A stretch of DNA of 64,000 nt from Eledone cirrhosa. Its lineage: Eukaryota. The stretch's first letter is position 1; each line of letters starts with the position of its first letter. Location of the stretch: positions 137,206,001 through 137,270,000 of the forward strand of contig OZ024742.1 of assembly GCA_964016885.1 (NCBI GenBank), in the 5' to 3' direction. A program made the translations under genes and the position numbers. Positions 4,740 to 61,250 of this stretch are shown here, in pieces. The notes under the pieces are model-generated. The model saw nothing but the letters and a program-made list of their open reading frames with translations, did no database searches and was not told the origin of the DNA.

Positions 4740-4927
4740 GGATTGTCAATATCGGTAGAGCCTCAGACAGCGTGCTTTGCGGCATAGAGTTATGGCCCTT
4801 CACGTTGTAAGTCCAAATCCCGCTGAGGTTAACTTTGCCTTTCATCCTTACGGGGTCGATAAAATAAAGCTCCAGTAATGCACTTAGATAAATGATGGCC
4901 TTGTGCCAAAAGTAGAAACAATTATTA
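4740..4927 (+). mobile_element. tRNA-derived SINE family A (Meta/Nin-like central domain, ATT tail)
   Basis: A-box-like TGTCAATATCGG, B-box-like AGTCCAAATCC, core GCCTTTCATCCTTACGGGGTCGATAAAATAAAG, 3' GGCCTTGTGCCAAAAGTAGAAACAATTATT; many copies in window. Confidence 0.85.
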
Positions 4928-7432: not shown

Positions 7433-7681
7433 TATATATATATATATATATATTATTATTATTATTATTGAATGCTATGGTTGACGGAGGCTCGGCTCTG
7501 TAAGGTATTGTAAATATTGACCGCTATATCAATTGTAAATTGTTTAAAACTTTAACCAAATTGTAGACAAAAACACCCTCCTCCTCATGAGAGGGGTCTT
7601 TCTGCCCGTTATTTGGCCCTTCGGTGTTAAATAACCGCTTATAGGGGTTTTGTGCCCAATATTTATTTAAAAAAAAAAAAA

Positions 7682-9814
7682 ATGGCTACGAAAAAGAATT
7701 TTCATAAGTCACTCCCACTCATACCGTCTTCTTCTTCCTCAATCGTCACTACAGCAGAGAGAAGATTGTCTCTCTCCCTCCCTTCTCTAAATGTGTCTCT
7801 CTCCCTCCCTTCTCTTTCGCATGCGACGCCAGAAAAGAAAAATCACGTGCAAAGCGTGCAAGATTTCTCCACGACGACAACGACAACGACGAAAAAGGTG
7901 TGCGGGAAATACGAAAACCCATTTCATTTGTCTGACGTCAGGAATAATAGCTGTAGCAGCCGTAATAACAGGAGTCGTAATAACAGCAGCAACAGCAACA
8001 GTGACAAGGAAAACAACAGTAGCAGCCGCAACAGCATCAGCAGCAGCATAAACAACAACAGCATTAGCAGCAATAACAACAAAAACCACAGCAACAGCGG
8101 CGGCGGCAGTAGTCGTAGTACCTGCAGCAACAACAAAAGTAACAGCAGCTCTGACGACAACAACAACAGCAGCAATGAAAAAACAATCTCGTTTGCAGGT
8201 ATCGCAAAGAACCTGGAAACCATCCTCATAACAAATGAGGAATTAGAGGAAGCGAAGAAGAGGGTGACGAATACCGGACACCGAGCAATCTGAAAGGCAG
8301 CCGAACATTTTTTCGAAACCCAACAGCACTGTACGGTCAAGTACCGTACAGTAAGCACAAAATCCCGTAGGGTTGAAAGAGCCACAGAGGCTCAAATACA
8401 AAAGTCCTGAGGGTCTGTGTGGCAGCGGAAAACGCACATCACCCGAGGCAAGAAATATGCCACCGTAAACGTGCTTTTTGCCACACCCCAGGAGGCAAAG
8501 GCTCAATCCTTAGTGACCCTAAGGAGCGAGGAAATGGTGTTGGTGCCCTCCTACAGCGGGCAAAAAATTGTGAGTGTCAAACTGACCCACGCCCCCCCCC
8601 CCCCCCCCGGGATGTCCCCTTCTTGGCTGGCCGCGTCTGTCCTCGTCGGAAACGAGGACAAAACAACTGTACTGCAAGTACAGAAAAAAGTAAGAGAAGA
8701 TTGGGTCGGCAAGTCCATTGAGATGTTAATCCAAACCAACCAGGAGTGCATCGAAGCTATCCCGGATGTGATAGACTTCGATAACGGCACTCAACTGCCC
8801 ATAAGTGTTGAGGGCAAATGCCCGAAATGCTTTCGCTATGGATCGAAGACTCACCTCAGGGCCTTCTGCAACGAGAAGACCCTGAGAAAGGAAAATAAAA
8901 ACTTCCTTCCGAAACCGGCTCCACGGCTACCAGCAACAGGACATGCAGCAACCAGGAACGATAGGTCCGTGGCACCCTTACCCACGGCACGGAAATCAAG
9001 AACAGCAGCAGCAGTGGAAGTATTAATAACAACAACAGCAATACCAAATGCAGCTGAAACAGAGACTCCACTGCAAACATCACCAACAACAACAAGTGAA
9101 AGAGTGGAGCTGGTACCCCTCCCCGACCTCACAGAATCAGACATGGAGTGGGAAGTGGGAAAGGGATGGCAAAAGGTCGTAAGAAGGCACAAACGCAGAA
9201 GCAGCGCATCATCGCCTTCGAAAAGGGAGGGAAGAAATGAAAAAAGGGTAAAGGCTACTGCAAAGAGACTCACAGCAGCAACACCACCAACACCATCACC
9301 ACCCACACTAGCACCACCATCACCACCGGCGACAACCCCGCCGCCAACAACAACAACACCTTCAACACCACCACCACAATAACCAACATCGCAAACACAA
9401 CAACAAAACACGCACACTCAGCAACAACGACAAGAAAATAGCAGAACCACACCCCACCCCCAGAAAAACAAATGCACGGCAATAAATACACACAACAAGA
9501 AACTAATGACTTACATAATTGAACACACAGACATTTCACAGCACGACTACATAATACCAGCACCAATGAAAACGCCAACGAACATAAGACTGCTAAAAAT
9601 AGCACAGAAACAACACACAAACATTAAAACGAAATTCCCCAACGCAGTTGGTAATTTCAGAGACCTAGGAGGGACTCTCAACCGGAGAGTATATTCGGAC
9701 ATACTCATAGAAGAGCCGACGACCAACCGAAGGGACGATTCAACGGTCCCTTCACCAGACGATCAAGTGAAAAGGGATGGAGAAACCATCCTTCCTCTAC
9801 GAAAAGTATGGTAA
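7682..9814 (+). pseudogene. Tx1 copy 1 ORF1 (gag-like; degenerate CCHC knuckle; Asn/Ser- and Pro/Thr-rich tracts)
   Basis: ORFs 7652-8293, 8417-9382 and 9506-9814 share one frame, interrupted by stops at 8291, 8408 and 9380; CFRYGSKTHLRAFC knuckle remnant. Confidence 0.8.
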
Positions 9815-9849
9815 GTGGTCTTTCCCATCTTTTCCACTCTATTTTAAAC

Positions 9850-12800
9850 ATGACCTCACTCAGAATAGGCAGCATAAATGCGCGTGGCTTGGGGTCGTCA
9901 TGGAAGCAGGGTCACCTGCTCAACGACCTCAGGTCACTAAACATAGATGTAGTGGCCATCAGCGAGACCAGAATCTCCGAAGCCCGGGCCTTCACATCGA
10001 TCTTCGGCGGCTACGATGTAAACGCATCTCCCTGCCGTCCTGGATCGGGGGGAGGAGTTGCTGTGTTTTTCGGAGAGGTTTGGATATCGACATACGGGCC
10101 ATCTTCCTGGACCCAGAGGGTAAGTTGGTGGTGCTGGACGTGACCAGCGGAGACGGGCAAGCTTTCAGGCTAGTGGTCGTCTATGCCCCGACAGGAGCAG
10201 GGCGGCCTGATTTCTTCCGACGTCTGCTGAACTTTTTTGGAACGTCCCGCTATATAGTGTTAGTGGGCGACTGGAACGAGATCTTAGATGCACACTAGGA
10301 CTGTGTGGGATTAACGGATAGGGGTGGAGAGTGCAAGAGCCTCACCAACCTGCTCAGGCGTTTTGAACTGTCTGACAGGTACCGATTGGATTTCCCGAAT
10401 GTGCCAATGTGGACTTGGACAAATCGCATAGGGTCATCCAGATCATATCTAGATAGAGTATTTTGTCGGGAAATAGATAGGTCTAGCATAGGTTGTCCAC
10501 AATTCAAGATAGTCAGCTACACGGACCACAAATTCGTGATCTGTGTGCTTGACTTAGATAGGCTTCATAGACGAGGACCCTGCTACTGGAAGCTAAACGC
10601 GTCCTTACCTGCGCGCAAGGCCTACAGAGACCGGATTAGCTAACTAGTTAAGCGGGCGTTGACGGGGGCCATCGTCAACAACAAGTGGTGGTTTGCTCTG
10701 AAAAGAGCGATTAGAATTAAATCCATTAGGTTTAGTAAGGCTTTAGCAATAAAGAAAAATAAGCAGAGGGAGAATTAGTTAGAAAATTAGACGAGGCGCT
10801 TAGCAAAGGCATCGCGACCGACGTGCTTGCGGCGAAATTGGCCCTTGACCAATTCTTCAATGCAAAGCACGAAGGCTGCGTTGTCAGAGCTAGGGTGCGT
10901 GCTCTCAGACACGAGGGGACGAAAGCCGTTCAATGGGCCCGAGTGGCGGAGGCGCATCATGGCAACAAAGCCACGATCCGGTCTTTGGTGGAACACGACA
11001 GGCGCATGCTACTCGATCCCGGGCAAATGTGTGAAGCTGTTCAGCGACACTACGCTCAGCTGTTCGGGGGCAGCAGTGGGCCGGGTCGAGGGATGGACTT
11101 TAGTGTCTACCTCGACGGACTGCCGCGGCACTCGGCCACTGAAGCGGAGTGTTGCAAAAAGTCGATAACAGCCGCTGAAGTACGGGAGGCAATGACTGGC
11201 TGCACAAGTGGTAAATCGCCTGATTTGGATGGTCTGCCCTATGAACTTTACGTACAGATGCCAGACTTGTTCAGAGGCCTGTTGGCGGACGTCTACTGCA
11301 ACTGGCAACAGAATGGGAGAATTCCCAGCTCTGTGAGCCGAGGAGCGGTGGCACTGCTGAGAAAGGAGCGAACAAGGGGGATAACATAGATAATTTCAGG
11401 CCCATAACTCTGCTAAACACAGAGTTCCAGATTTTGGCCAAGGTGCTAGCAAAGAGGTTGGCGCTTGTCGTCGGTGGTCTGGTGGGAGAGGCGCAGACAT
11501 GCGCCATTCCCGACAGATCCATCCACGACAACCTCCACCTCATGCGATACATCGTAGAGAGGGTAGCTAGGGAACCTGGCACGGGTGGGTCCTTGATCAA
11601 TTTAGATCAGTCGAAAGCTTTCGATAGGGTCGACCATCGTTACCTAGCAGCAGTCCTGAGGGCGGCTGGCTTTGGGCCCGTCTTCAGAAGCTGGATCGCT
11701 GCCATGCACAGCGACATTTGCTCTGTGGTGAGAGTGAACGGTCACCTTTCGGAACCGTTCAACATCATGCGCTCGGTCCGCCAAGGATGTCCCCTCTCGT
11801 CCCTCTTGTACGTATTGACTCTCGAGCCATTACTGCACAAACTGGAGACGTTGAGGGACATCCCACGCGAACTAGGATGCGGAAGATCCGTGTCAGCATA
11901 TGCGGACGATGTCACCGTAGTGGTGTCGAACGCCAAATACATCGAGGCGATCGGCACTACACTAAGAGAATACGAAGCGGTGACAGGAGCAATGATCAAC
12001 CAGGAAAAGTCAGTGGGCCTGCAGCTCGGCACCTGGAGAGGCAGGTCCATGCCGTCCAACAGCGTCGTCGGACGCTGGACGGACGGACCGGTTAAATTGC
12101 TAGGGATCTGGTTCGGTCCAGACCTCCAGACGGACAAAAACTGGGATGAGGTGACGAGCAGGGTGGTTTCTCTCACCCAGAAATGGGCGGAGAGGAAGCT
12201 ATCCCTGAAAGGTCGAGCGGAGGTGGCTAACGCGTACATCGCGTCTGTCATCTGCTACCGCCTGACCGTCGTACCTTGTCCTAAGCCCCGCCTGACTGCG
12301 CTGGAGCGGTTGCTCTTTCGCTTTTTGTGGAAGGGACGCGCTCCGAAGGTGAGGCGGTCTATCTGCTGTCAACACTCGCTACGTGGAATGCTGGGAATGC
12401 CGTGGCTGATGATGCGCAGACACGCGCTCAGGCTACGACATCTTCATCTCTTCCTCGACGGTGATCAGGTGTGGTCGCTGTTTGCTAGACACGTATTTCC
12501 CCAGCTCGTTTCCTTGACGGAGCTGCAGTCCTGGGTCAAGCGAAGACCGAGAGGGAGCGCCTGGAGACTGGAATGTCTTCAGGCGCTCACAGCCCTCGAC
12601 CAATCGGGCAATGTGATCGGTGGAAACTCCACCTCGTCGTTCTATAGAGGATTAGTGGAGGGGAAGAGCGACGACGTACCTGGGGAAACTCTAGGCGTCA
12701 ACGAAAATCAACTAGCCAATCTCTTCGGAAGAACTTTCCGGCCGGGGCCTATGGACACCTTCCAGAAATCTCTGGCCTGGCAGTGCTACCGAGGAGCCTT

Positions 12801-13267
12801 GCCAGTTCGGGATAAACTCTACAAGCATGGAGGTGCCGTCAGCCGGGCATGTCCGAGATGCGTGCAGGGCGACGAAACCGTCCTGCACGCACTCGTCCAG
12901 TGTCCGAAAATTTGTTGACTTGTGGGTTTATGTCGAACACCTGCTGTCGCGTGTAGGACGGATCCGGCTATCAGCAGAATCCATTGTGACGATTGCCCCG
13001 CCCTCCTTCTTTAGCCGGGAAGGGCAGGCAGTTTTTATCTGTCTGGTGGCCATGGCGAAAGAGATAGTATGGTGGACACGTTTGAAAGGGCTGAAGACGA
13101 GCACTTACCTCTTCGGTGATGCCCTGATTGACTTTTTCAAATTTCATTTGAAAAGGAAAATCAGAGTAGAGAGGGAAGTGCTCTCTTCCCAGCATTTTGT
13201 TGAAAGATGGGTGAGAGAAGCAAGAATGGCCCGAGTGAATGGGCCTACTCTGAATATATATCTGTAA
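9850..13267 (+). pseudogene. Tx1 copy 1 ORF2: APE endonuclease, reverse transcriptase, C-terminal zinc-binding region (frameshifted)
   Basis: SINARG, AISETR, VYAP, GDWN, YLDR, TDH (APE); LDQSKAFDRVDH, VRQGCPLS, AYADD (RT); CPRC...ETVLHALVQC. Confidence 0.92.
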
Positions 13268-13773
13268 ATTAAAGGTGGAAAACTGGGACAGGACACTTGC
13301 CTTGGTGGTCAGGGTCATTGTGGCCTTTTTACTGGGCTTTCTCAACAAATGTCCCTCCGAAGTCCCCCCCCCCCCTATTGGGGAATTTTTCATTTTTATT
13401 TTTTGTTACATCCTCTGTTTTTGTTTTTTACACGCAGAAATGCCCATTTGTACCGTCCTGTATTGTCCTGCACTGTCCTTAATGTCTACTTTATGTAAAC
13501 CCATGTGGTTAATAAAGAAATCATTATTATTATTATTACTATTATTATTATAAAAGAACAGGAGGCTGGACTGGTGTAGGAGATGTAGGAGGTAGGTGAG
13601 TATGTTGCTCGGAGGAACACCAAAAGTGTGAAACGGAATCTGTCAGCTTCTCTCCCTTCCTTTGCTGAAAAAAGGTGTAAGTGACATAGTCACTACTTTA
13701 AAATAATAGCGCAAGGTCTACAAAATGTTTTTAATTAAACATACAGTATATTACCAAATATATAATACATACA

Positions 13774-20835: not shown

Positions 20836-21028
20836 AATAATAATTGTTTCTACTTTAGGCACAAGGCCAGCAATTACCCAGTGCGTTACTGGTACTTTAT
20901 TTTATCGACCCCGTAAGGATGAAAGGCAAAGTCAACCTCGGCGGGATTTGAACTCAGGTCGTAAAGGGACGTAACTATGCTGGAAAGCATGGTGTCTGAC
21001 CCTCTACCGATACTGCCAATCCACCGCC
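20836..21028 (-). mobile_element. SINE family A, full length
   Basis: Minus strand GGCGGTGGATTGGCAGTATCGG (A box) ... GAGTTCAAATCC (B box) ... core ... ATT tail; 18-bp TSD GTTAATACTAATAATAAT at 20827 and 21141. Confidence 0.9.
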
Positions 21029-21523
21029 CAATCTAGCATATAGTCAGCATATATAGACAAGATGCAGCTACACAAAATGTTTCCTCGGCAATATTTCCTT
21101 TAAATAAGGGGTAAGTTGGTGCACTTACAGCCAATACACCGTTAATACTAATAATAATGCTTGTGGTTTGTTAATGTGATGGTTGGAAGTCATGTGCGTC
21201 CTACTTTGTTACTGTAAATGTAATTTTGGTAGTATTGCGCAGATGATTGTTGATATTGGCAAAGAGTTGTTCTTAATGACCTCAATAGATATTATATTAA
21301 GTCATACTAATTGTAACGGCTTTAGGGGAGTTAAAATAATAGCGAACCCAGTGGGGATACAGGCTATTAGACATGATATATGATGCAGGTGTTTCTGGTG
21401 TTGTCCACTCTACAAGTCATGCAGGCTTATGATGAAAAGTATTCAATTCACAGCTTATGATCTATCCGTATTTTTTGAAGACGGGAGGTTGTAATGAGGG
21501 TTTATGGTTGTCATATCCAGAAA

Positions 21524-21711
21524 ATAATTGTTTCTACTTTTGGCACAAGGCCAGCAATTACCCAGTGTATTACTGGTACTTTATTTTATCGACCCCGTAA
21601 GGATGAAACGCAAAGTTAACCTCGGAGGGATTTGAACTCAGAATGGAAAGGGCCGTAACTCTATGCGTCAAAGCATGGCGTCCGACCCTCTACCGATACT
21701 GCCAATCCACC
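21524..21711 (-). mobile_element. SINE family A
   Basis: Near-identical to the 20836-21028 copy. Confidence 0.9.
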
Positions 21712-22003
21712 ATGACCACGTTCAGGCTCCTTCATTGGCCACCCATGCTTCCTTCCCTTCAAAGAAGCTATGGGCTTGTGTCCCCTGTACGTTAATACCC
21801 ATCCTTTTTTTCCATTCAGAGGTTTTCTTTTAAATGCCAACTAACATACTAATTCTATGTAGTCAAATACGGCATAAGCACATGTTTCTTCCAAATTCGC
21901 CAGCCGTTTGTAAACAAAGCCAGTTTTGTATCTCCTTATTTTTATAGATACATATAGCTGCTATGGTCATATAGCTTCTAATTTAACGGAAGGAAGCATG
22001 GTT

Positions 22004-22622: not shown

Positions 22623-22673
<51 letters not shown>

Positions 22674-22677
<4 letters not shown>

Positions 22678-23130
22678 AAATAGTAGTAAGAAAAAAGATT
22701 CTTTCAGTGGAAAATGTTGAAGAGATTATTATCAGTGAGATATCAAAACATTGATTATTTACAATACCGGTTTCAGCATTAAATACATTGCCAATTGAGG
22801 ATATACAGAATGTTTTTAAGTTGCATCATTTTTCTTCCGCATTTTATTTTCATTGTTTTCATTATTATTATTATCACTATTTGTGATAATAATAATAATG
22901 AATAATAGTAATACACTGGGTAGTTGCTGGCCTTGTGCCTAACGTAGAAACAATTATTATCACTATTTGTACAAATATGCAACTTAACAATATTCTACAT
23001 ATCCGCAATTGACAATGAATTTAATGCTGAAACCGTTATTGTAAATAAATTAATATTTTGATATCTCACTGAAAAGAATCTCTTCAACATTTTCTACTGA
23101 AATAATATTTTTCCTTTCTACTATTTGTTT
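22674..23130. repeat. Foldback element (~150-bp inverted arms) in (TA)n, with a SINE A 3' fragment in the spacer
   Basis: 22674-22826 is a diverged reverse complement of 22977-23130; SINE tail 22905-22958 with TSD ATTATTATCACTATTTGT. Confidence 0.8.
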
Positions 23131-23177
23131 TTATATATATCAACTCGTGTGTTACTTTTCTACATTCGATATATATA

Positions 23178-26100: not shown

Positions 26101-26685
26101 CAATTATTTCTACATTTGGCACAAGGCCAGCAATTACTGGTGCATTACTGGTGCTTCATTTTATCGACCCCGTAAGGGTGAAAGGAAAAGTTAACCTCGG
26201 CGGAATTTGAACTCAGACCGTAAAGGGCTGTAACTATATGCTGCAACTCATGGCGCCCAACCCTCTACCGATACTGCCAATCCACCAGGCAAATAATTGT
26301 TTCTGCTTTTGGCACAAGGCCAGCAATTAACCAGTGCATTACTGGTACTTTATTTTATCGATCCCGTAAGGATGAAAAGTAAAGTTAACCTAGGCAGGAT
26401 TTGAACTCAGACTTTAAAGGGAGGTAACTATGCTGGAAAGCATGACGTCCTACTCTCTATCGATACTGACAGGAAAATAATGATTTCTTGTAAAGACACA
26501 AGGCCAGTAAATTGTGGGGAGGGGAAAGTCGTTAAAATCGATCCCAGTACGTTACCGGTGCTTTATTTTATCGACCCCGTAAGGATGAGAAGCAAAGTTA
26601 ACCTCGGCGGGATTTGAACTCAGACATTAAAGGGAGGTAACTATGCTGGAAAGCATGACGTCCGACTCTCTACCGATATTGACAG
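26101..26685 (-). mobile_element. Three head-to-tail SINE family A copies
   Basis: Copies at ~26101-26287, 26292-26470 and 26477-26683; the third carries the longer GGGGAGGGGAAAGTCG subfamily insert. Confidence 0.88.
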
Positions 26686-31082: not shown

Positions 31083-31611
31083 TAATTGTTTCTACTTTAG
31101 GCACAAGGGCAGCAATTACTGGTACTTTATTTTATAGACCCCGTAAGGATGAAAGGCAAAGTTGACCTCGGCGGGATTTGAACTCAGAATGGAAAGGGCC
31201 GTAACTCTATGCGTCAAAGCATGACGTCCGACCCTCTACCGATACGGCCAATCCAATGCCTCTACCATAATAATTGTTTCTACTTTTGGCACAAGGCCAG
31301 CAATTACCCAGTGCATTACTGGTACTTTATTTTATCGACCCCGTAAGGATGAAAGGCAAAGTTAACCCCGGCGGGATTTGAACTCAGAATGGCAATGGTT
31401 TCTAATATAGGCACACGGCCATTAATTTTTTGGGGAGGGGAAAGTCGATTAAATCGGCCCCAGTGTGTGAGTGGTACTTTATTTTATCGACGCCGTGGGG
31501 ATGAAAGGCAAAGTTAACCTCGGCGGGATTTCAACTCGGATCATAAAGGGCCGTAACTCTATGCTGCAAAGCATGGTATTCGATTCTCTACCGATACTGC
31601 CAATCCACCGC
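31083..31611 (-). mobile_element. Three stacked SINE family A copies
   Basis: Copies ~31083-31260, 31268-31390 and 31396-31611; flank TGTGCCACTACCATAAT repeated at 31070 and 31615, with a variant at 31257. Confidence 0.88.
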
Positions 31612-31776
31612 CCTTGTGCCACTACCATAATAATGATGGCGGTTCATTCTGTCGCCATGAATATTAAAAGAAGTGAAGTTATTAATGTATTACCGTGCGG
31701 GATCTACATGTCTGTTGGTTCTATCGCAGCTGTTAAAAAACAATGCCAAAAGAGTGTAAAATTATTATTATTATTA

Positions 31777-32224
31777 CAGGCCCATAACTATGCTCAACAC
31801 AGAGTTTAAAGTGTTGGCCAAGGTGTTAGCAAAGAGATTGGCGCTTGTCGTCGAGGATTTGGTTGGGGAGACGCAAACTTGTGCAATCCCAGCCAGGTCC
31901 ATACACGACAATCTCCTCCTCATGCGATACATCATAGAGAGGGTAGGGTGTAAACTTGGCTTCGGTGAGGCAATGATCAATCAAAAGCATTCAATAGGGT
32001 CGACCATCGGTATCTGGAGTTTGTCCTCAAAGCAGCTGGCTTCGGCCCTGTTTTCAGAAGCTGGATCGCTACAATGCACAGCTGCACAGGCTCGGTGATC
32101 AAGGTTTATGGCCACCTCTCGGAACCATTTCAGCTCTCCCTATCGGTCCGTCTAGGGTGCCCTCTCTCTTCCCTTCTGTACGTATTGACTCTTGAGCCTT
32201 TACTGCGGAAGCTAATAAATGAAA
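31777..32224 (+). mobile_element. Tx1 RT fragment after (ATT)n, internally deleted
   Basis: RPITMLNTEFKVLAKVLAKRL...SIHDNLLLMRYI; ends GCTAATAAATGAAA like the 3' end of copy 4. Confidence 0.85.
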
Positions 32225-32228
32225 AAAG

Positions 32229-32610
32229 GGCGGTGGATTGGCAGTATCGGTAGAGAGTTGGACGCCATGCTTTCCAGCATAGTTACGTCCCTTTACGATC
32301 TGTGTTCAAATCCCGCCGAGGGTGACTTTGCCTATCATCCTTACGGGGTCGATAAAATAAAGTACCAGTAATACACTGGGTAATTTCTGGCCTTGTCCCT
32401 AAAGTAGAAACAATTATATTATTATTATTATAAAGGCGTTGGATTGGCGGTATCAGTAGCGGGTTGGACACCATACTTTCGCGCAAAGAGTTACGTCCCT
32501 TTAAGATCTGAGTTCAAATCCCGCCGAGGTTAACTTTGCCTTTCAGCCTTACGGGATCGATAAAATAAGGTACCAGTAATGAGCCAAAAATAGAAACAAT
32601 TATAATTATT
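32229..32610 (+). mobile_element. Two tandem SINE family A copies with ATT tails
   Basis: GGCGGTGGATTGGCAGTATCGG at 32229 and GGCGTTGGATTGGCGGTATC at 32435; tails ACAATTAT(T). Confidence 0.9.
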
Positions 32611-35890: not shown

Positions 35891-35891
35891 T

Positions 35892-38800
35892 CGGCCAAAA
35901 TGTTATCTCTGTGGGTCGAAGGGTCACCTCAGGTCCTTTTCCCCGCAGAAGACAGCGAAGAAGGCCCCTCTCCTTCCAATACCTGATCCGCTGCTACCAA
36001 GAGCAGGGCAGGGAACAAACGCAGAAGCCCCTTCCACGGTGAGTAGGAGGGCAACGTCCGCAGCACCCGTACCAAGGCCACGGATAACTAAAGCAGCATC
36101 ATCAGTGGCGGCAACACCAATAGCTACATTTGAAGTAGCTACACCAGCAACAAAATTGCCGAAGCGGGCTCCACTACCACCACCAACACCGTGGAGCACA
36201 TACCCCTCCCAGACGCCACAGAATCCGACATGGAGCTTGAAGCGGGAGTGAAGTGGCAAACGGTTTTCCACATAAAACAAAAAAAAAAACCCTTAGATTC
36301 ACCTTCCAAAAGCGAAGGCATAAAAAGAGGGGTAAAGGCAGCAAGGAAACTTGCAGCAACACCACCACCATCACCACCACAAATACCACTGACAACAACA
36401 ACCACACCACCACCAGCATCACCCAAAACACCAACAACGAAAACACAACAAGACACACACACCAAACAGCAACAAAATCACCCCTTGCCCAAAAAGTACA
36501 CAGCCATAAACATGGTAAAAAAAGAACTCATACAATATATAATGCAGCACACAAACATCACAGAAAAAAACTACTACAGCCCACCAATACGAAGAACTCT
36601 CCCGACAAACATAAGCATCATCGAAATCTCAATATAACAGTACAAACTTTTAAAACAAAAATTCCACAACGCATTGGAATCTTCAGAAGGTCGGTTACCA
36701 AGAGGATATACACTGACATCCTCTTGGAAACACGCATAACCAGCGAAAGGGACGGTTCTACTGTCCCTTCACCACATGATCAAGGTAATTGACCCTTTCT
36801 CACTTGCCCCGTTTCTAATCCAACATGGCCTTACTCAGAATAGGCAGTATAAATGTACGTGGCCTGGTGTCATCTTGGAAGCAGGGTCACCTGCTCAACG
36901 ACCACAGGTCACTAAACGTAGATGTGGTGGCCATCAGTGAAACCAGAATCTCCGAAACACAAGTCTTCGCACCGATCTTCGGCGGCTACGATGTATACGC
37001 ATCTCCCAGCCGTCCAGGGTCGGGGGAAGGAGTTGCCGTCCTTTTTCGGAGAGGCTTAGATCTCGCGATACGGGCCATCTTCCTAGACCCAGAAGGCAAG
37101 TCGGTGGTGCTGGACGTGACCGGCTGCGAAGGCAATGATTTCAGGCTAATAGCCGTCTATGCCCCAGCAGGGGCAGGACGGCCAGATTTCAACAGACGTC
37201 TAGAGACCTTTCATGGAACGTCCCGCTCTTTAGTTCCAGTGGAACGGTATCTTAGATGCACGCTGGGATCGTGTGCGGCTAGTGGATAGGGGAGGAGGGT
37301 GCAAGAGCCTCACCAACCTGCTCAGACGTTTTGAACTGTCTAACAGGTATAGACTGGATCACTCGAATGTGCCAATGTGGACATGGACAAACCGCATCGG
37401 GTCATCCAGATCGTATCTCGGTAGGGTATTCTGCAGAGAACTAGATAAGGCTAGTATAAGTTCTCCACAATTTAAAATAGTCGACTACACATACCACACA
37501 TTTGTGATCTGTGAGATCGACATAGACAGACTTCATAGACAAGGGCCTGGTTACTGGAAGCTGAACGCGTTTTTCCCTGCGCGCAAAGCCTACAGAGACC
37601 GGTTTAGCATATTAGTTAAGCAGGCGTTGACGGGAGCGGACGTCAACATCAGGTGGTGGTTCGCCCTGAAAAGGGCAATTAAAGTAGAGTCGATTAGGTT
37701 TAGCAAAGGAGTAGTGATAGAAGAAAATAGAGTAGAGGGAGAGCTAGTCAGAAAGCTAGAAGAGGCGTTTAGGATAGGCATCGCAACCGACGTGCTTGCG
37801 GCGAGATTGGCACTCGACCAATTCTTCAACGCAAAACACGAAGGCTGCGTTATCAGAGTTAGAGCGCGTGCTCTGAAACACGAGGGGACAAAAGCCGTCC
37901 AATGGGCCCGGGTGGCAGAGGCGCGACATGACAACAAAGCCACAATTCGGTCTTTGTCTAACCAAAACGGGTGCGTGATGCTCGAACCCGAGCGGATGTG
38001 TGAAGCTTTTCAGCAGCACTTTGCTGAACTGTTCGGGAGCGGCGGCGGCCAGGATAGGGGCATGGACTTCAGTGTATACCTCGACAGACTGCCTCGGCTC
38101 TCGACAACCGCAGCACAGAGTTGCGAAAAGCCAATAACAGCCGGTGAAATAAGGGAAGCGATGGCTAACTGCACAAGGGGTAAATGCCAGGTTTGGATGA
38201 TCTCACCTACGAGTTTTATGCATTTATGCCAGACTTGTTCGGTGACCTCTTGGCAGACGTCTACTGCAACTGGCAGCAGAACGGGAGCATTCCCAGTTTT
38301 GTGAGCCGGGGAGCAGTGGCGCTGCTGAGAAAAGACCCGAACAAGGGGGATGTTATCGATAATTTCAGGCCCATAACCTTGCTAAACGCAGAGTTCAAGA
38401 TTTTGGCCAAGGTGTCGTCGTCAAGGGTCTGGTGGGAGAGGCGCAGACATGCGCCATTCCGGACAGATCCATACACGACAAACTCCACCTCATGCGTTAC
38501 ATCATAGAGAGGGTGGTTAAGGAACCTGGCACGGGTGGGGCCCTGATCAACTTGGATCAATCCAAATCATTCGATAGGGTCGACCACCGGTACCTGGCGG
38601 CGGTCCTCGAGGCAGCCGGTTTCGGGCCCGTTTTTAGGGGTTGGATCACAGCAATGTACAGCGACATCTGCTCAGTTGTGAGGGTGAACGGTCACCTGTC
38701 GCAGCCGTTCAGCATCATGCGCTCAGTCCACCAGGGTTGTCCCCTCTCGTCCCTCTTGTACGTATTGGCTCTCGAACCATTACTGCACAAACTGGGGGCA

Positions 38801-40540
38801 ATGATGGGCGTCCCACGCGAACTAGGATGCAGGAAATCCGAGTCGGCTTACGCTGACGACGTCACCGTGGTGGTGTCGAGCACCAGACACGTCCATATGC
38901 TCGGCACCGCTCTCAAGGAATACGAAGCGGTGACAGGAGCAAAGATAAACTAGGAAAAGTCGGTGGGCTTGCAGCTCGTCACCTGGAGAGGCAAATCGAT
39001 GCCGTCCGACAGCATCGTGGGGCGTTGGACGGACAGACAGGTTAAATTGCTCGGGGTCTGGTTCGTACCGGACCTCCAGATGGAGAAAAGCTGGAACGAG
39101 ATGAGGAGCAGGGTGGCCTCTCTCACCCAGAAATGGGCCGAGAGGAAGCTGTACCTGAAAGGCCGGGCGGAGGTGGCGAATGAGTACATCGCATCCATCA
39201 TCTGCTACCGCCTCACCGTCGTCCCTTGCTCCAGCCCAACTCTCACCAAAATGGAGCGCCACCTCTTCCGCTTTTTGTGGAAGGGACGCGCTCCCATGGT
39301 CAGACGATCCATCTGCTGGCAACACCCGTTGCGTGGGGGAATTGGCATGCCATGGCTGATGATGCGCAAACATGCGCTGAGGCTGCGACATCTCTGGTGC
39401 ATCCTTGATGTTGAACAGGTGTGGTCGCCGTTCGCCAGGCACGTTTTCCCACAGCTCGTCTCCTTGACAGAGCTGCAGTCCTGGGTCAGAAAAATCCCGA
39501 GGGATAGCGCTTGGAAACTGGAATGTCTCCAGGCGCTCACTGCCCTCTGCCAGCTGGGCACCAGTATCAGTAGAACATCCACCTCGGCGTTCTATAGAGG
39601 ATTAGTGGAGGGGAAGAGTGACGACATTCTCGGAGAGATCCTGGGCGTCGAAGAAGATCAGCTCTTTGCTCTATTCCGGAGAACTTTCAGCCCGGGGCCT
39701 ATGGATAACTACCAAAATCCCTGAACTGGCAGTGCTACCGGGGAGCGCTGCCGGTTCGAGATAACTCTACAGGCACGGAAGTGCCGTCAGCCGAGCCTGT
39801 TCGAGATGCGCGCAGAGCGACGAAACCGTCGTTCACGCAATCCTTCAGTGCCCGAGCATTGCTGACTTGTGGAGCTATGTCGAACAGTTGCTGTCGCGTG
39901 TAGGACTGATCCGGTTGTCGACTGAGTCCATTGTGCAGATGGTCTCGCCGTCTTCCTTCGAGGAGGAATGGCATGTGGTTTTCATCTGCCTGGTGGCCAT
40001 GGCGAAAGATATTGTGGTGGACAAGGTTAAAAGGCTTAAAGACAGACACTTTCCACTTCGGCGAATCCTTAATTAACTTTTTCAGGTTTCACTTGAAGAG
40101 GAAAATCAGGGTGGAGAGGCAAGTGCTGCTTTCTAGCAAGTTTGTTGAAAGGTGGGTTAATGTAGCGAGAATGGTCCGAGTGAACGGGACCACTCTGAAT
40201 ATACGTCTGTAGTTTGAAAGATGGAAAAATTGAGAGAGGGCGCTTGCCCTGGTGGTCAGGGTGGCCGTGGTCTTTTGTGAGGTTTTCGCCACAAGTAACT
40301 CTCGGAGGTTTCCCCCCTATTGGGGAATTTTTCATTGTTTCAATTTTCATTTTCTTGTTTATATATATATGTTTCTATGTCTTTTTCTTTTTCCTTTCTT
40401 ATATAAATAATAAAAATTGTTACACGCACAAAAGTCCACATCGTACCGTCCTGTACCGCACTGTGCCGTCTGTAATGTTTTTCTTGATGTCAGCCCTTGT
40501 GGCCAATAAAGAAATCATTATTATTATTATTATTATTATT
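35892..40540 (+). mobile_element. Tx1 copy 2, 5'-truncated at the ORF1 zinc knuckle, (ATT)n tail
   Basis: Starts RPKCYLCGSKGHLRSF; ORF2 36825-40212 with APE/RT (AYADD) motifs and frameshifts; AATAAAGAAATC(ATT)8. Confidence 0.92.
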
Positions 40541-43500
40541 GGCGTCCTACGTAGTAAATCCTATCATCGTGAGCTCCGCAAAGGTTTGTTATTTTCAGTT
40601 GTTTAAAATTGCTATTCATGGAAAAGTTTTATTGTTAACTGTATATAAGTGCACATACATGGTTTTCCGAAAAGAACACTCAAAACGATTAGGGACTTGA
40701 GCCCAAAATTTAAACTTTAATAATCATAAATAAAAACTTTCTTTGAAAAAAACATGGATGACTCACAGCCACACGAAGCTGACAGCCTTCCTCACAAACT
40801 AACACCTCACACCGACACCACCATTGTAAATATTACTACGTTTGCCAACACGAAAAATATAAGCAGTAGCAATATTTTAAATTTGTCTCAGGCAGACATT
40901 CATTTCCCGCCATTACCAATGACTGCAGGTGTTAAAGCCGCCACCACCACCACCACCAGCAGAAACAAAAGAAAAAAATAAATTAACTCATGATATCGAA
41001 ATGAATTCAACCAAAATAAACTCTTCCACACCGAACACCACTGACGCCACCACCACCACAAATGAAACTAAAATTAGCAATAACAAAAATAACGATAACA
41101 ACAACAGCAACAATGAAATTAATAAAACTACCCTGAGTTTTGACAGAGTAGCAAAAACGTGCGAAGCGATACAGGTAACTCAGGAGGAATTAGAAGAGGC
41201 CAAAAAAAATGGTAAAGAAAGATGGGTACAGGGTCAGCCTCCCCTCACCACCACCTAATAAAATGGAGCATCGGCGCCTATGCACCGTGTCTTATCATAC
41301 AATATATAAAATCGCGCCGAGTGGAACGGGCATCAGAGTCCCAAATCCAAAATCTTTGGGACATGTGTGGGCAAAATAAATCCACATACGACGTGAGCAG
41401 AAGTATGGAACCGGGGACGTGTTCTTTGAAACACCACAGGAGGCTAAAGAACACTCCATGGCTCCATAAAGAAGTGACAACTTCACACTCGTCCCAAGCT
41501 ATTGTGGCCAGAGACTCGTAAAGATCAGGGTCACCCACGTTCCACCGGCCATCGAATTCCCTGGCTAATAGCTGCCGTCCTCACCGGCATCGAAGCCAAT
41601 ACCAAGATAATAGAAATAGCGAAAGAAAAGCAGGAGAACTGGTCCGGATCTGGGATGGAGCTCCTGATCCAAGCGGACCAAAAAAGAATTGAGGAGATCA
41701 CAGAGGTAATAGACCTCACTGACGGCAGCCACCTCACCGTAATTGTCGAGGGCAGAAGGCCTAGGTGTGTCGTTTGTGGTGAAGGAACCCACCTAAGGGC
41801 TTTCTGCCCTCAGGCTAAAAGGTTGAGGCCACCTCTCCTACCCACCCCAGTGACTCAACCATCAACACCACCAGCAGCAGAAATGGCAGCAACAACTGTA
41901 GCAGCAACAACAGAAACAACTGTAATAGCAACAACCCCAGCAACAGTAGCAAAACCAACACCACCACCACCCAAAGCGCCAGAACTAGCACCAGCGCCTA
42001 CACCATCCACCACGCCACAACCAAAACTAACGCCTGTGGAGGATTTTCCACTCCCCGGCCTATCACAACTGGAGACAGATTGTGACGGCGAGGAGTGGGA
42101 AACGCTATCAGGAAAAAAGAAAATAAGAAACCAAAAAAGAAAAAATTCTCTTCCTTCCCCCACCAAAAACAAAATACAGAGGGAAACAAATAAACTATCA
42201 AACAAAAAAGTTAGGAGAGACATGCCACCTTACACACCAGCATCACCAACCCTATCACCCCAAACACCAACACCATCACCATCATTAACCTCAACACCAC
42301 CATCACCAACACCACAAAAGTCACCAAAATGCGAAACAGAAACAAACCCACAACAAACGCAAACAAAACAAAACAACCAAAACGATACACACTACACAGC
42401 ATTAAATTTGAACAACAACCAATTATTACACTACATCCAACACAACACCAGCATCACAGAAAAAGACTACACAACAACCCAAAAGATCACACCACCTCCA
42501 CACATACAAATCACTCGCATCACACAGAAAACGTACATGACACTAAAACAAAAAATTCCCCAAAGACATCGGAGACTTCCGACAAGCACTCTCCAGGAGG
42601 ATTTATAAGGACATCCTTCCTGAGGAGGCCACAAGCAGTTAAAAGGATGGACACACCATCCTTCCTCTACGAGAAGTAAGGTAAGTGGTCTTTCCCATCT
42701 TTTCCACTCCATTTCAACATGACCTCACTCAGAATAGGCAACATAAATGCGCGTGGCTTGGGGTCGTCATGGAAGCAGGGTCACCTGCTCAACGACCTCA
42801 GGTCACTAAACATAGATGTATAGGCCATCTAAGTCGATCTACGGCGGCTACGATGTGTACGCACCTCCCAGCCGTCCGGGATCGGGGGGAGGAGTTGCTG
42901 TGCTTTTTCGGAGACGTTTGGATCTTGCCATACGGGCCATCTTCCTGGACTCAGAAGGTAAGTTGGTGGTGCTGGACGTGACCAGCGGAGACGGGCAAGC
43001 TTTCAGGTTAGTGGACGTCTATGTCCCGACAGGAGCAGGGCGGCCTGATTTCTTCCGGCGTCTGGAGACCTTTCTTGGAACGTACCGCTCTTTAGTGTTA
43101 GTGGGCGACTGGAACGGGATCTTAGATGCACGCTGGGACTGTGTCGGATTAGTGGATAGGGGAGGAGGGTGCAAGAGTCTCACCAACCTACTCAGGCGTT
43201 TTGAACTGTCTGACAGGTACCGATTGGATTTCCCGAATGTGCCAATGTGGACTTGGACAAATCGCATAGGGTCATCAAGATCATATCTAGATAGAGTATT
43301 TTGTAGGGAAATAGATAGGTCTAGCATAGGCTTTCCACAATTCAAGATAGTCAGCTACACGGACCACAAATTCCTGATTTGTGTGCTTGAATTAGATAGG
43401 GCTACTGGAAGCTAAACGGGTCCTTACCAGCGCGCAAGGCCTAGAGAGACCGGATTAGCGAACTGCGTTGTCAGAGCTAGGGTGCGTCCTCTCAGACACG

Positions 43501-46033
43501 AGGGGACGAAAGCCGTTCAATGGGCCCGAGTGGCGGAGGCGCGTCGTGGCAACAAAGCCACGATCCGGTCTTTGGTGGACCACGACGGGCGCATGCCACT
43601 CGATCCCGGGCAAATGTGTGAAGCTTTTCAGCGACACTTCGCACAGCTGTTCGGGGGCAGCGGCGGGCCGGATCGAGGGATGGACTTTAGTGTCTACCTC
43701 GACGGACTGCCGCGGCTCTCGGCCACTGAGGCGGAGTGTTGCGAAAAGCCGCACAAGTGGTAAATCGCTTATGTTTGGATGGGCTGCCCTATGAACTTTA
43801 CGTACAGATGCCAGACTTGTTCGGAGGCCTCTTGTCGGACGTCTACTGCAACTGGCAACAGAACGGGAGAATACCCAGCTCTGTGAGCCGAGGAGCTGTG
43901 GCGCTGCTTAGAAAGGATCCGAAAAAAGGGGTTACATAGATAATTTCAGCCCCATAACTCTGCTAAACACTGAGTTCAAGATTTTGGCCAAGGTGCTAGC
44001 AAAGAGGTTGGCGCTTGTCGTTGGTGGTCTGGTTGGAGAGGCGCAGACGTGCACCATTTCTGACAGATCCATCCACAACAACCTCCACCTCATGCGATAC
44101 ATCGTAGAGAGGGTAGCTAGGGAACCTGGCACGGGTGTGTCCTTGATCAATTTAGATCAGTCTAAAGCTTACGATAGGGTCGACCATCGTTACCTAGCGG
44201 CAGTCCTGAGAGCGGCTGGCTTTGGGCCCGTCTTCAGAGGCTGGATCGCTGCCATGCACAGCGACATCTGCTCTGTGGTGAGAGTGAACGGTCACATTTC
44301 GGAACAGTTCAACATCATGCGCTCGGTCCGCCAAGGATGTCCCCTCTCATCCCTCTTGTACGTATTGACTCTCGAGCCATTATTGCACAAACTGGAGACG
44401 TTGAGGGGCGTCCCGCGCGAACTAGGATGCGGAAGATCCGTGTCAGCATATGCCGACGATGTCACCGTAGTGGTGTCGAACGCCAAACACATCGAGGCGA
44501 TCGGCACTACACTAAGAGAATACGAAGCGGTGACAGGAGCAATGATCAACCAGGAAAAGTCAGTGGGCCTGCAGCTCGGCACCTGGAGAGGCAGGTCCAT
44601 GCCGTCCAACATCGTCGTCGGACGCTGGATGGACGGACCGGTTAAATTGCTAGGGGTCTGGTTCGGTCCGCACCTCCAGACGGACAAAAACTGGGACGAG
44701 GTGACGAGCAGGGTGGTTTCTCTCACCCAGAAATGAACCGAGAGGAAGTTATCCCTGAAAGGTCGAGCGGAGGTGGCTAACGCGTACATCGCGTCCGTCA
44801 TCTACTACCGCCTGACCGTTGTACCTTGTCCTAAGCCCCGCCTGACTGCGCTGGAGCGTTTGCTCTTTCGCTTTTTGTGGAAGGGACGCGCTCCGATGAT
44901 CAGGCTATCATTCTGCTGTCAACACCCGCTACGTGGTAGGCTGGGCAAGCCGTGGTTGATGATGCGGAGATGCGCTCACCTCTTCCTCGACGGTGATCAG
45001 GTGTGGTCGCCGTTTGCTAGACACGTCTTTCCCCAGCTCGTCTCCTTGACAGAGCTGCAGTCCTGGGTCAAGCGAAGACCGAGAGGGAGCGCTTGGAGAC
45101 TGGAATGTCTTCTGGCGCTCCCAGCCCTCGACCAATCGGGCAATGTGATCGGTGGAAACTCCACTTTGCCGTTCTGTAGAGGATTAGTGGAGGGGAAGAG
45201 CGACGACGTACTTGGAGAAACTCTAGGCGTCGGCGAAAATCAACTAGCCAATCTCTTCGGAAGGAATTTCGGGCCGGGGCCTATGGACAACTTCCAGAAA
45301 TCCTTGGCCTGGCAATGCTACTGAGGAGTTTTGCCAGTTCGGGATAAACTCTAAAGGCATGGAGGTGCCATCAGCCGGGCATGTCCGGGATCCGCGCAGG
45401 GCGTCGAAACCGTCCTGCGCGCATTCAGCTAGTGTCCGAGCATTGCCGACTTGTGGGACTATCTCGAACACCTGCTGTCACGTGTGGGACGGATCCAGCT
45501 ATCATCTGAGTCCATAGTGAGGATTTCCCCGCCCTCTTCCTTTAGCCGGTGGCCATGGTGAAAGAGATAGTATGGTGGACACGTTTGAAAGGGCTGAAGA
45601 CGACCACTTACCTCTTCGGTGATGCCCTGATTAACTTTTTCAAATTTCATTTGAAAAGGTAAATCAGGGTAGAGAGGGAAGTGCTCTCTTCCCAGCATTT
45701 TGTTGAAAGATGGGTGAGAGAAGCAACAATGGTCCGAGTGAATGGGCCTACTCTGAGTATGTGTCTGTAAATTAAAGGTGGAAAACTGGGAGAGGGCACT
45801 TGCCCTGGTGGTCAGGGTCACTGTGGCCTTTTAATGGGCTTTCTCCACAAATGTCCCTCGGAAGTCTCCTCCCTATTGGGGAATTTTTCATTGTTATTTT
45901 TTTATTACATCCTCTGTTTTTTTTTACACGCAGAAATGCCCATTTGTACCGTCCTGTATTGTCCTGTACTGTCCTTAATGTCTACTTTATGTTAACCCTT
46001 GTGGTTAATAAAGAAAGCATTATCATTATTATT
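40541..46033 (+). mobile_element. Tx1 copy 3, apparently full length, directly after the (ATT)n tail of copy 2
   Basis: 5'UTR from 40541; ORF1 ~40754-42684 with intact CVVCGEGTHLRAFC knuckle; ORF2 42719-45770 nearly identical to copy 1 but with deletions and stops. Confidence 0.92.
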
Positions 46034-47013
46034 AGCTGGCACCTGGAATGTTGCCAACCACTCACTGCCCTCTACCAAGCGGGCAATGCGATCAGTGGAA
46101 CTTCCACTCTCGAGTTCTATAGAGGATTAGTGGTGGGCAAGTGCGATGACGCACTCGGAGAAGCTTTGGGCCTCGACGAAGTCGAACTGACCCGTCTGTA
46201 CCGGAGGACTTTTGAGCCGGGGACGATGGACAATTTCCAGAAATCCCTCGCTTGGCAGTGTAACCGGGGGGTCACTGCCGGTTCGGGATAAACTCTACAG
46301 GCACGGAAGTGCTGTCAGACGGACCTGCCCAAGATGCGCACAGAACGACGAAACCGTTCTGCACGCACTTGTCCAATGTCCGTGCATTACTGACTTGTGG
46401 AGTTATGTCGAACAGCTACTGTCGCGTGTAGAACGATTCCGGCTATCGGCCGAGTCCATAGTGAGATCGATTCACCGCCTTCCTTAGGTCAGGAAGAGCA
46501 GGAAATGTTCCTCTATCTGGTGGCAGTTGCGAAAGAGATAATATGGTGGACCAGGTTGAAAGGACTAAAGACACTTTTCTCTTCGGCCAATCCCTCATCA
46601 ACTTCTTCAAGTTTCACCTGGAAAGGAAGGTGAGGGTGGAGAGAGAAGTGCTGCCCCCCAGTACATTTGCTAAAGGGTGGGTGAATCTGGCGAGAATGGC
46701 TCGTGTGAATGGGCCTACTCTGACCATGCGCCTATAGGCTAGCTAACTTGAGGAGAGGGGTGCGCTCCCTGGGTGCCCTAGAAGCGCAGGGTGGTTCAGG
46801 ATTGGTGGGGTACTCAAATCACCCCAGGGTCGTCCACCCCCTATCGGGGAATTTATTTTGTTATATTTATGAATAGTTTATTTTATATTTTTATATTTTC
46901 ATTGTTAATTAGTCTTGCCATTGTGCACTTTTACTCGATCTTATTGTAAACCCTCACTGTCCCTGTCTTTGTATTGTCCCCTACATGTCGGCCCTGGTGG
47001 CTAATAAATGAAA

Positions 47014-47045
<32 letters not shown>

Positions 47046-48772: not shown

Positions 48773-50668
<1,896 letters not shown>

Positions 50669-51375: not shown

Positions 51376-51454
51376 CTTAGTGATTCAGGTGTTCTTTTAC
51401 GTTTTGTACCTTACTATGAAATATAGTATTTTGTTAGTTATTATTTTAACATGT

Positions 51455-51640
51455 GGATTGGCAGTATAGGTAGAGGGTCCGACGCCATGCTTTCCAGCAT
51501 AGTTACGTCCCTTTACGATCTGAGTTCAAATCCCACCGAGGTTGACTTTGCCTTTCATCCTTACGGGGTCCATAAAATAAAGTACCAGTAATGCACTGGG
51601 TAATTTCTGGCCCTGTGCCTAAAGTAGAAACAATTATTTT
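51455..51640 (+). mobile_element. SINE family A with TSD
   Basis: ATTATTTTAACATGTGGA at 51440 and 51633; another partial minus-strand copy at ~51925-52045. Confidence 0.9.
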
Positions 51641-52152
51641 AACATGTGGATACGGATGAAAAATTGAAATGTGAAATTGTTATCATTCGGAAATGCTATT
51701 TTATTGAGCTAACTAATACATGCATCACGAAGGAGTCTATCTGAATACAATAGATGTGTAACAGAGAAAGATAGAAATTGAGAGAATAGAAGTGAGAAAG
51801 ATATATAGAGGGGAAATGGATAACAGCAATAGACAAATCTCGCCGATTTTTGAACTAAGAGAACAGAGAGCCAGAACGATTACGGCAAAGCATTCCATCC
51901 GACGTTCTAACGAATCTGTCAAACCGCCGCCTGATCTAAACTAATAATTATTTTTACTTTTGGCACAAGGCGAGCAAATATCCAGTGTATTACTGGTACT
52001 ATATTTTATCGACCCCGTAAGGATGAAAGGTAAAGTTAACCTCAAACTAATAATAGCTACTAATAAGTACATGATGTAGTGCATTAAATAATTATATAGA
52101 TGTACAGGTAAGTAGCTTCATTGAAACACACACACACTTTCATATATGTATA

Positions 52153-60888: not shown

Positions 60889-61029
60889 TGTCTTTTATTA
60901 TATAAATTATGAACACACAACCTTTGCAATCCCTAATGTGCAGATGTATATAATTTTCTTCACTGTTTTATCTTCTATCTCTGACTATTTTTTCACTATG
61001 ATACCACTCTTATTACTTATTCGTTTAGG

Positions 61030-61250
61030 GAGGTTGACTGGCAGTATCGGTTGAGCATCTGATACCATGACTCATGGCGTAGAGTTATATCCCTTTACGT
61101 TCTGATTTCAAATCTCATTGAGGTCCCCTTCGCATTTTATTCTTACGGAGTCGATAAAATAAAGTACCAGTGACACTCCGGAGTCGATTTAATCGACTTT
61201 CCACTCCCCACAAATTGTTGATCTTGTGTCTAAATCAGAAACTATTATAT
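61030..61250 (+). mobile_element. SINE family A (long subfamily), diverged
   Basis: TGGCAGTATCGG ... GATTTCAAATC ... GTCGATAAAATAAAGTACCAG ... GATCTTGTGTCTAAATCAGAAACTATT. Confidence 0.8.

Follow-up and report, generated by a model that had tools for sequence, protein, structure and literature searches.

A SINE and Tx1-type LINEs with a common 3' hairpin and ATT target sites: a candidate partner system

Introduction

Is a SINE that lies scattered among Tx1-type LINEs copied by their enzyme, and is a small hairpin at the 3' ends of both the signal that is read? The question is raised by a stretch of 64,000 nucleotides (the window) from an animal genome of 3.0 Gb, for which an original prediction had proposed a partnership between one SINE family and the resident Tx1 LINEs. 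Mammalian L1, the best-studied element of the group, needs only a poly(A) tail. The sharing of a tail by a SINE and a LINE is itself textbook knowledge, so that the surprise of a further case would be limited.

Tx1-type LINEs of the window and the genome

The Tx1 copies of the window (Table 1), together with one intact ORF of 1153 aa, match PF03372, PF00078 and PF13966 (endonuclease, RT and C-terminal zinc region), and ORF2 thus combines the APE endonuclease, RT and zinc region that characterise the L1 clade. The nearest solved structure to ORF2 is human L1 ORF2p (E 1e-30), with R2 behind it. Human L1 reaches 110 bits, and a protein named 'Transposon TX1 uncharacterized 149 kDa protein' reaches 205 bits, but the TX1 protein fell outside the 27-row group when a quick tree, rooted at the midpoint and built without the reference elements Tx1L, Keno, Kibi and Koshi, was drawn; the elements are putative members of the Tx1 clade in the strict sense. 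Upstream of ORF2 the window has open frames of 323 and 376 aa, both without a Pfam match, and an element of the sister clade described below has an ORF1 of 649 aa.

The intact Tx1 ends that were read follow a common design, consisting of a stem of 3-4 bp, a 5-nt loop (mostly CTTGT), AATAAA and GAAA, after which the target repeat begins directly, without poly(A). Pattern searches of the whole genome found at least 15,212 such ends on ATT (control 10) and 3,440 on TATC (control 0). A preference for target sequence, which is a trait of the Tx1 clade, is also seen at the other end of the elements, since the same repeat stands in the 5' flank of 26/60 ATT-type and 16/26 TATC-type copies. Further Tx1 families (L372-L401) have the same hairpin with longer spacers and end next to TA-rich or TGTC-type sites. 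The retention of the hairpin across families at different targets indicates that the target was switched several times under a constant 3' signal.

The LINE set of the genome (L1-Tx1, Dong-R4, CR1 and RTE) is the one listed for Octopus vulgaris in the available part of PMC13282606. R4/Dong-type LINEs, with an RT and a restriction-like endonuclease and with (AAT)n ends, occupy 32626-35923 (-) and 47046-47670 (-) of the window, tail-to-tail with Tx1 and SINE copies inside ATT arrays common to all three; long mixed clusters have thereby been built on one microsatellite by LINE groups that are unrelated and opposite in polarity. Degenerate endonuclease and RT fragments of one more LINE are found at about 14949-16605 (-). 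Long inverted repeats at 22664-23140, 58004-59981 and 55525-55889, with arms of about 170, 190 and 64 nt, may be MITE-like or palindromic elements. Rfam gave weak matches on the window, almost all of them to microsatellites.

Table 1. Positions of the SINE and Tx1-type copies in the window
Feature	Position	Strand	Details
SINE, short form	4740..4920	+	Hairpin GGC-CTTGT-GCC at 4897-4907
Tx1-type LINE copy 1, ATT-targeting family A, apparently full length	7470..13522	+	5' start directly after ATT run 7452-7469; ORF2 (endonuclease-RT-zf-RVT) frameshifted across ~9847-13264
Terminal hairpin of copy 1	13498..13510	+	AACC stem, CATGT loop, GGTT stem
Final 12 nt of copy 1	13511..13522	+	AATAAA and GAAATC
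Target array, (ATT)n, following the 3' end of copy 1	13523..13552	+	
SINE, full-length short form, 186 nt	20845..21030	-	A-box-like, B-box-like, body, Tx1-like tail
SINE, short form	21529..21711	-	
SINE, strongly 5'-truncated	22907..22952	+	18-nt TSD beginning ATTATTAT
Three SINEs, head-to-tail	26105..26684	-	26482-26684 long form with C-rich tract; 26298-26471 and 26105-26286 short form
Three SINEs, head-to-tail	31087..31614	-	31397-31614 long form; 31275-31387 truncated; 31087-31260
Tx1 family C, internal fragment	31770..32213	+	RT region, without 3' end
Two SINEs, head-to-tail	32228..32600	+	32228-32412; second from 32435, with tail deletion
Tx1 copy 2, family B, without 5' part	35892..40516	+	Hairpin GCC-CTTGT-GGC at 40493-40503; followed by ATT run 40517-40540
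Tx1 family A	40541..46018	+	Head-to-tail behind copy 2; internal deletion near 43463; hairpin AACC-CTTGT-GGTT at 45994-46006
Tx1 family C, 5'-truncated, 980 nt	46036..47015	+	ATT array on either side; hairpin GGCC-CTGGT-GGCT at 46990-47002
SINE	51453..51632	+	TSD beginning ATTATTTT
SINE, 5'-truncated	51949..52043	-	11-nt TSD
Tx1, TATC-targeting family, 5'-truncated	56723..57675	-	TATC repeats flanking; same terminal motif, mutated, GCC-CCTGT-GTC
SINE, old long form	61028..61250	+	

Structure and abundance of the SINE

The SINE occurs as a short, young form of about 186 nt and a long, older form of about 220 nt with a C-rich tract. It is short, non-coding, dispersed and numerous, with 5' truncations and TSDs, in agreement with the general description of SINE2 elements; the genome-wide search returned at least 229,172 pattern matches (control 446), and 120 matches were counted in a sample of 600 kb. 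The head carries an A-box-like stretch, TGGCAGTATCGG, found by pattern, and a B-box-like stretch, GAGTTCAAATCC, read by eye where the strict pattern missed it. On these motifs the head appears tRNA-like, with putative Pol III A and B boxes; ARAGORN and Rfam, applied to SINE copies, gave no tRNA match. The SINE may resemble the octopus OK family. OK, OR1 and OR2 are tRNA-derived SINEs of octopus (Ohshima and Okada 1994, as cited in the available parts of PMC4758252 and PMC4824008), and a partner LINE for them is not given in the open-licence literature searched.

At its 3' end the SINE reads GGC-CTTGT-GCC followed by 13 nt ending in GAAANN. The AATAAA is a feature of Tx1 alone, and the young form lacks the C-rich tract as well, but it keeps the loop, the stem, the spacing and the GAAA; variation per site in this tail is biased, the copies having been selected by motif.

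Empty insertion sites, sought at 50500-52100 in three contig sets of one sample, yielded no spanning contig; the contigs over this region contain many head-to-tail SINE joints. At locus L157 (848-1034) a SINE with a 15-nt TSD beginning ATTATTAC has a flank that reads as Tx1 coding sequence, which suggests insertion into a family B element. A separate tRNA-like sequence at 22004-22074 (+) of the window scores 27.3 bits against the Rfam cut-off of 29, and the body after it is repeated at 21779-21956; it may represent a further SINE family or the pseudogene of a tRNA.

The shared 3' end

The Tx1 ends at 13498, 40493, 45992 and 46990 and the SINE ends at 4897, 22929 and, on the reverse strand, 20836 read as originally described. 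The match of 22/30 terminal positions that had been counted between the SINE and copy 2 is reproduced only when the 6 nt of ATTATT are included, and falls to 19/30 if the count is made on the 30 nt that precede the repeat; over the last 25 nt, with ATTATT left out, 16/25 positions agree (p=0.0002 against shuffles). The distance from loop to end, said to be constant, measures 16 nt in Tx1 families A and B as well as in the SINE, while family C has 17 nt. The constancy of the 5-nt loop largely holds, CTTGT being present in about 92/100 listed ends, as counted by eye in a genome-wide search that left both stem and loop free; the CATGT (13502) and CTGGT (46994) of the window are copy or subfamily variants, that of copy 1 being confined to a single copy.

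In end-anchored comparisons over 25 nt, seven resident Tx1 ends matched five SINE copies at 10-17/25 positions, while twelve ends of CR1, RTE, R4-type and I-type LINEs matched the same copies at 2-10/25. A better match from another LINE family, which would have told against the partnership, was therefore not found among these twelve, which are a sample and not a census of the LINE ends. The SINE and the resident Tx1 elements thus share a tail in the manner of stringent-type SINE/LINE pairs.

The R4/Dong-type elements, with their restriction-like endonuclease, use the same microsatellite target and are abundant in the same ATT arrays, those of the window included, and for this reason they may be considered as mobilisers of the SINE. 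However, they end in (AAT)n, that is, in the opposite polarity, and agree with the SINE at 5-10/25 terminal positions; of all the explanations weighed here theirs is the most improbable.

None of the four window Tx1 copies has the SINE stem, for which sequence from outside was needed. A genome-wide pattern search for resident Tx1 elements with this stem returned seven matches, all seven of which are SINE variants. When the protein of the sister clade was used as the query, the best matches in the genome were 34-37% identical, and 30/30 of the ends read belonged to the resident clade.

A sister Tx1 clade with the SINE stem

A scan of genome contigs detected related Tx1 elements on contigs CAXXMW01, in head-to-tail arrays, with ORF2 40-43% identical to that of the resident clade; a quick tree placed them as its sister group (SH-aLRT 98/100). 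The record (L328-L363, L371) is labelled as an Arenicella MAG and contains intact two-ORF Tx1-type units, of about 6.4 kb on L337, between which no target repeat and no RNA gene was seen. It is almost certain that the arrays are eukaryotic DNA, presumably from an animal, that has entered the record of a bacterial genome. Searches for relatives in viral contigs found none, and in 87 remoter L1/Tx1 loci (24-43% identity), many of them without a complete 3' end, no hairpin was found before AATAAA.

The motif search recovered 18 distinct sister-clade ends, and in every one of them GGC-CTNGT-GCC stands behind a C-rich tract. The stem is exactly the GGC/GCC of the SINE, and the tract is like that of the older SINE form. 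In local alignments against four long-form SINEs, three of the four sister-clade ends tested gave z 4.0-9.3 and the fourth z 2.7-4.4, while the short form matched the sister clade weakly (z 0.8-2.1). The window containing the 3' end ranked first of 284 at locus L337 for 22/23 long-form copies, first of 194 at L358 for 18/23 and first of 232 at L328 for 13/23. Three of four SINE copies scored above all 10,060 background windows, and for the fourth 10/10,060 windows scored as high. The match to the sister clade was not picked up by a blind blastn search in which the SINE was compared with all outside loci.

In 10/11 distinct sister-clade ends a second hairpin of 5-8 bp and varying sequence lies between 'GCC+1 nt' and AATAAA; as it is inserted after 'GCC+1 nt', folding it out restores the 1-nt spacing of the resident clade. 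This hairpin appears in folding of single sequences and was not recovered by RNAalifold on the gapped alignment. Rfam reported nothing above the gathering score on four sister-clade loci.

Covariation and predicted stability of the hairpin

Covariation was assessed in 25 representative ends (18 resident, 5 sister and 2 SINE). In the family-level alignment 79.2% of the cells were paired, against 61.1% in shuffled alignments (0/500) and 20.8-47.2% when the stem was slid, and cells with double changes numbered 23, against 7.7 when shuffled. The two measures of covariation least inflated by kinship did not rise above shuffles (249/500 and 235/500). The innermost pair is invariant, pair 4 is broken in 7/25 ends and the outer pairs are often broken. 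On the quick tree the inner stem underwent about three independent events: one change at pair 2, between the resident and sister clades, and two at pair 3, where G-C was replaced by A-U in family A and independently, via G-U, in a TATC family. The 14 resident families form a consensus hairpin of 4 bp with double changes at two of the four pairs. A conserved 3' stem-loop with compensatory changes, as known from stringent pairs, is therefore present, with few independent events. The original expectation that the loop would be kept and the stems compensate in a larger sample is borne out by the 25 ends, with about three independent events behind the compensation.

The 3-bp hairpin is weak (-1.8 kcal/mol). 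Its predicted pairing in 67 full-length SINE copies has a median of 0.04, rising to 0.47 in the last 60 nt and 0.95 in the last 33 nt; in Tx1 it is 0.00 in one large group (29 copies) and 0.56-1.00 in most others. A longer lower stem, predicted in single copies of Tx1 A and B, is missing from the family alignment and was discarded.

Insertion sites and the choice of target

A TSD of at least 10 nt, starting at the first base after the SINE, was found in 72/173 copies with an intact 3' end, against 12.8 +/- 2.9 in shuffled pairs; the duplications at these ATT sites measure 10-22 nt. The 59 non-repeat TSDs have a median length of 16 nt and begin, as originally described, with ATTATT, the first six positions being conserved at 83-100%. 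The 'ATT tail' that the original prediction assigned to the SINE is in fact the start of the TSD: in 14/59 TSD pairs the two copies deviate from ATTATT in an identical way, for example as GTTAT or AATAT, which identifies the supposed tail as target DNA. The 5' flank contains ATTAT in 103/173 SINE copies, 26/60 ATT-type Tx1, 2/26 TATC-type Tx1 and 5/27 CR1 copies, against a background of 282/3320 (8.5%). For Tx1 itself TSDs were scored in 23/60 copies against 18.6 shuffled, which is no clear excess, because most of the sites consist of the repeat alone and the 5' junction is ambiguous in many copies; single cases of a unique TSD exist. The ATT arrays are longer around Tx1 than around the SINE.

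These data bear on a young CR1 family (L128-L132, L147), which has an ORF2 of 957 aa and in which some 130 nt at the end of the 3' UTR are often present as two or more tandem duplications. In molluscs CR1 elements commonly act as partners of SINEs, according to the available parts of PMC4758252 and PMC4824008, and this family, with at least 5,039 copies, is recently active and has a hairpin of its own and an (ATT)n end of the same polarity, so that it might mobilise the SINE while the likeness to Tx1 is coincidental. Nevertheless, its end-anchored identity to the SINE is 2-3/25, TSDs starting at the tail were found in 2/27 copies (shuffled 1.6), far from the proportion in the SINE, and the 5' flank does not repeat the ATT run of its 3' end. 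This explanation is very unlikely, and the role of CR1 as the mobiliser is largely refuted.

Genome-wide, the SINE end is followed by ATTATTAT (ATT) 51,147 times and by TATCTATC (TATC) 4 times. Since the TATC families share the hairpin, yet the SINE almost never ends on TATC, the hairpin alone is not sufficient for ATT targeting. This fits an alternative in which Tx1 mobilises the SINE and the SINE tail is Tx1-derived, but the hairpin is not read, the template being selected by pairing of its 3' AUU with the nicked target; the hairpin would then serve in 3'-end processing near AAUAAA or in RNA stability, or in the SINE would merely be inherited. The weakness of the stem, predicted to be unformed in full-length SINE RNA, and the direct contact of the Tx1 motif with AATAAA also speak for it. 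Against it, the SINE has dispensed with AATAAA, and its young form with the C-rich tract too, yet the hairpin, its spacing and GAAA have remained, and in both Tx1 clades the stems compensate while the loop they enclose stays constant. A pure AUU rule would moreover predict ATT sites for other RNAs ending in AUU, while (ATT)n-tailed CR1 has ATTAT in few 5' flanks, although CR1, using its own enzyme, is a weak control. We regard this alternative as a serious one, but as distinctly less probable than recognition of the hairpin by Tx1 ORF2p, which, by analogy with known stringent LINEs, we somewhat favour.

Age of the SINE and of the LINE families

Age was taken as divergence from the column majority, a rough measure in which subfamilies are pooled and copies sampled by pattern. 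On this scale the median divergence is 5.9% for the short SINE (54 copies, down to 1.7%) and 12.0% for the long form (37), while the Tx1 families stand at 3.5% (A, 24/27 copies kept), 2.9% (B, 8) and 4.3% (C, 16), TATC-1 Tx1 at 8.2% (17/21) and CR1 at 5.0% (33/34). The short SINE and Tx1 A-C thus overlap in age, which does not single out Tx1 as the partner, and the long SINE is older than the Tx1 families sampled.

The true partner of the SINE may instead be a LINE that is extinct or was missed by the sampling, in the first place an older lineage of Tx1 whose stem was GGC/GCC, and of which families A-C are mere relatives. The stem and C-rich tract of the SINE do fit the sister clade and not the resident one, and the long form, at about 12% divergence, predates the sampled Tx1 families. 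On the other hand, neither pattern nor protein search of the genome found such a family, the young SINE has the same target as families A-C and an age range that overlaps with theirs, and ATT-type Tx1 ends are present in their thousands. This possibility seems to us improbable.

Proposed mechanism

The shared terminal sequence, the spacing, the polarity of the target and the start of the TSD, together with a sister clade that has the SINE stem and tract, support the partnership originally proposed, and it is very likely that a Tx1 lineage mobilises the SINE. The hairpin and ATT sites shared with Tx1 make copying by Tx1 through a structured RNA signal likely; the tail is likely to stem from the 3' end of an ancestral Tx1, and the SINE to be copied by the ORF2p of the ATT-targeting families. 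As a whole, a tail derived from Tx1 and copying by ORF2p through both the hairpin and AUU pairing with the target is the best explanation, to which we assign a probability of roughly 0.6.

On this explanation Pol III would transcribe the SINE from its A and B boxes and read into the flanking AUUAUU. ORF2p would bind the CUUGU loop on a stem of 3-5 bp whose sequence is free, by analogy with L2 (available part of PMC4176376), and through this contact reverse transcription would be made to begin 16-17 nt downstream. A nick by the endonuclease in the AAT strand would free an AATAAT end, which could pair with the AUUAUU of the RNA and prime synthesis; cleavage of the second strand about 16 nt away would give rise to a TSD of 10-22 nt. 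Repeat pairing, or binding specific to the family, may be why the TATC-type families leave the SINE unmoved in spite of the same hairpin. In the simplest history the SINE would have captured its tail from a Tx1 ancestor; in the resident clade one stem pair would later have been flipped (G-C to C-G) and the C-rich tract lost, and the SINE may have kept the older state.

Comparison with known systems

The chances are about even that the system represents a stringent animal LINE of the L1/Tx1 clade, from an invertebrate lineage, with a SINE partner, in which the template is checked by two keys, a CUNGU-loop hairpin at a fixed distance from the end and pairing of the RNA with the target repeat, in which inserts are free of poly(A) and in which a SINE that ranks among the most abundant of the genome preserves the ancestral form of the signal, older than that of its present helpers. 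SINE insertions in the hundreds of thousands would thus have a likely driver, and their accumulation at ATT microsatellites an explanation. As two target classes go with one hairpin, RNA recognition and DNA targeting should be separable by swaps.

The stringent L2 pairs UnaL2 and ZfL2-1/2 (Hayashi 2014, PMC4176376) likewise have a short 3' stem-loop with a specific loop, an exchangeable stem and a short repeat. They belong to the L2 clade, and their binding is proven by experiment, while recognition is inferred here; in the available part of that paper the repeat is described as a tail of the element, whereas the ATT of the SINE is derived from the target.

Among L1-clade elements, the original contrast between stringent LINEs and a poly(A)-dependent L1 type was overstated, as stringent members have already been proposed in monocots and a green alga (PMC3472496), and structure recognition is assumed for non-mammalian L1 (PMC7245038), as stated in the available portions of both papers. 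ZmSINE2/3 with LINE1-1_ZM, and SINEX-3_CR with L1-1_CR, share a 3' hairpin with a kept loop and compensatory stems (PMC3472496, PMC3747384); unlike the present elements, these pairs are of plant and green-algal origin, terminate in poly(A) and lack specificity for microsatellites, as far as the available parts of these sources describe them. In the same parts L1-clade tails account for only 3/58 SINE/LINE pairs, all from plants and an alga, and the available text of the 2013 review by Ohshima (PMC3747384) mentions no octopus, mollusc, squid or cephalopod. An animal SINE with a Tx1 tail was not found in the open-licence literature searched, nor is one described in the available parts of PMC5786205, PMC4824008 and PMC4758252. 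That the L1 clade was stringent ancestrally and came to read poly(A) later is a standing hypothesis resting on the plant and algal cases (PMC3472496, available part), for which the SINE/Tx1 system offers an animal test case with intact ORF2 copies and natural stem variants.

Kibi, Koshi and the crocodilian (TTCC)n and (TTTC)n families are also microsatellite-specific Tx1 elements (PMC4494074), for which the available part of that paper mentions neither a SINE partner nor a 3' hairpin. Unlike theirs, the repeats targeted here are (ATT)n and (TATC)n, and other families lie at TA- or TGTC-rich sites. The one link between a SINE and Tx1 met with in the literature searched, described in the same paper, is SINEU with Tx1-Mar of crocodilians (Kojima 2015), likewise a target-specific Tx1 partner with tandem SINEs around the TSD. 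There, according to the available text, the link is one of target only, with no LINE carrying the 3' terminus of SINEU-1 and with poly(A) on all SINEU, and the heads are derived from U1 and U2; here the head is apparently tRNA-like, the target is a microsatellite, poly(A) was not seen, and the tail sequence, the hairpin and the spacing are common to the SINE and Tx1.
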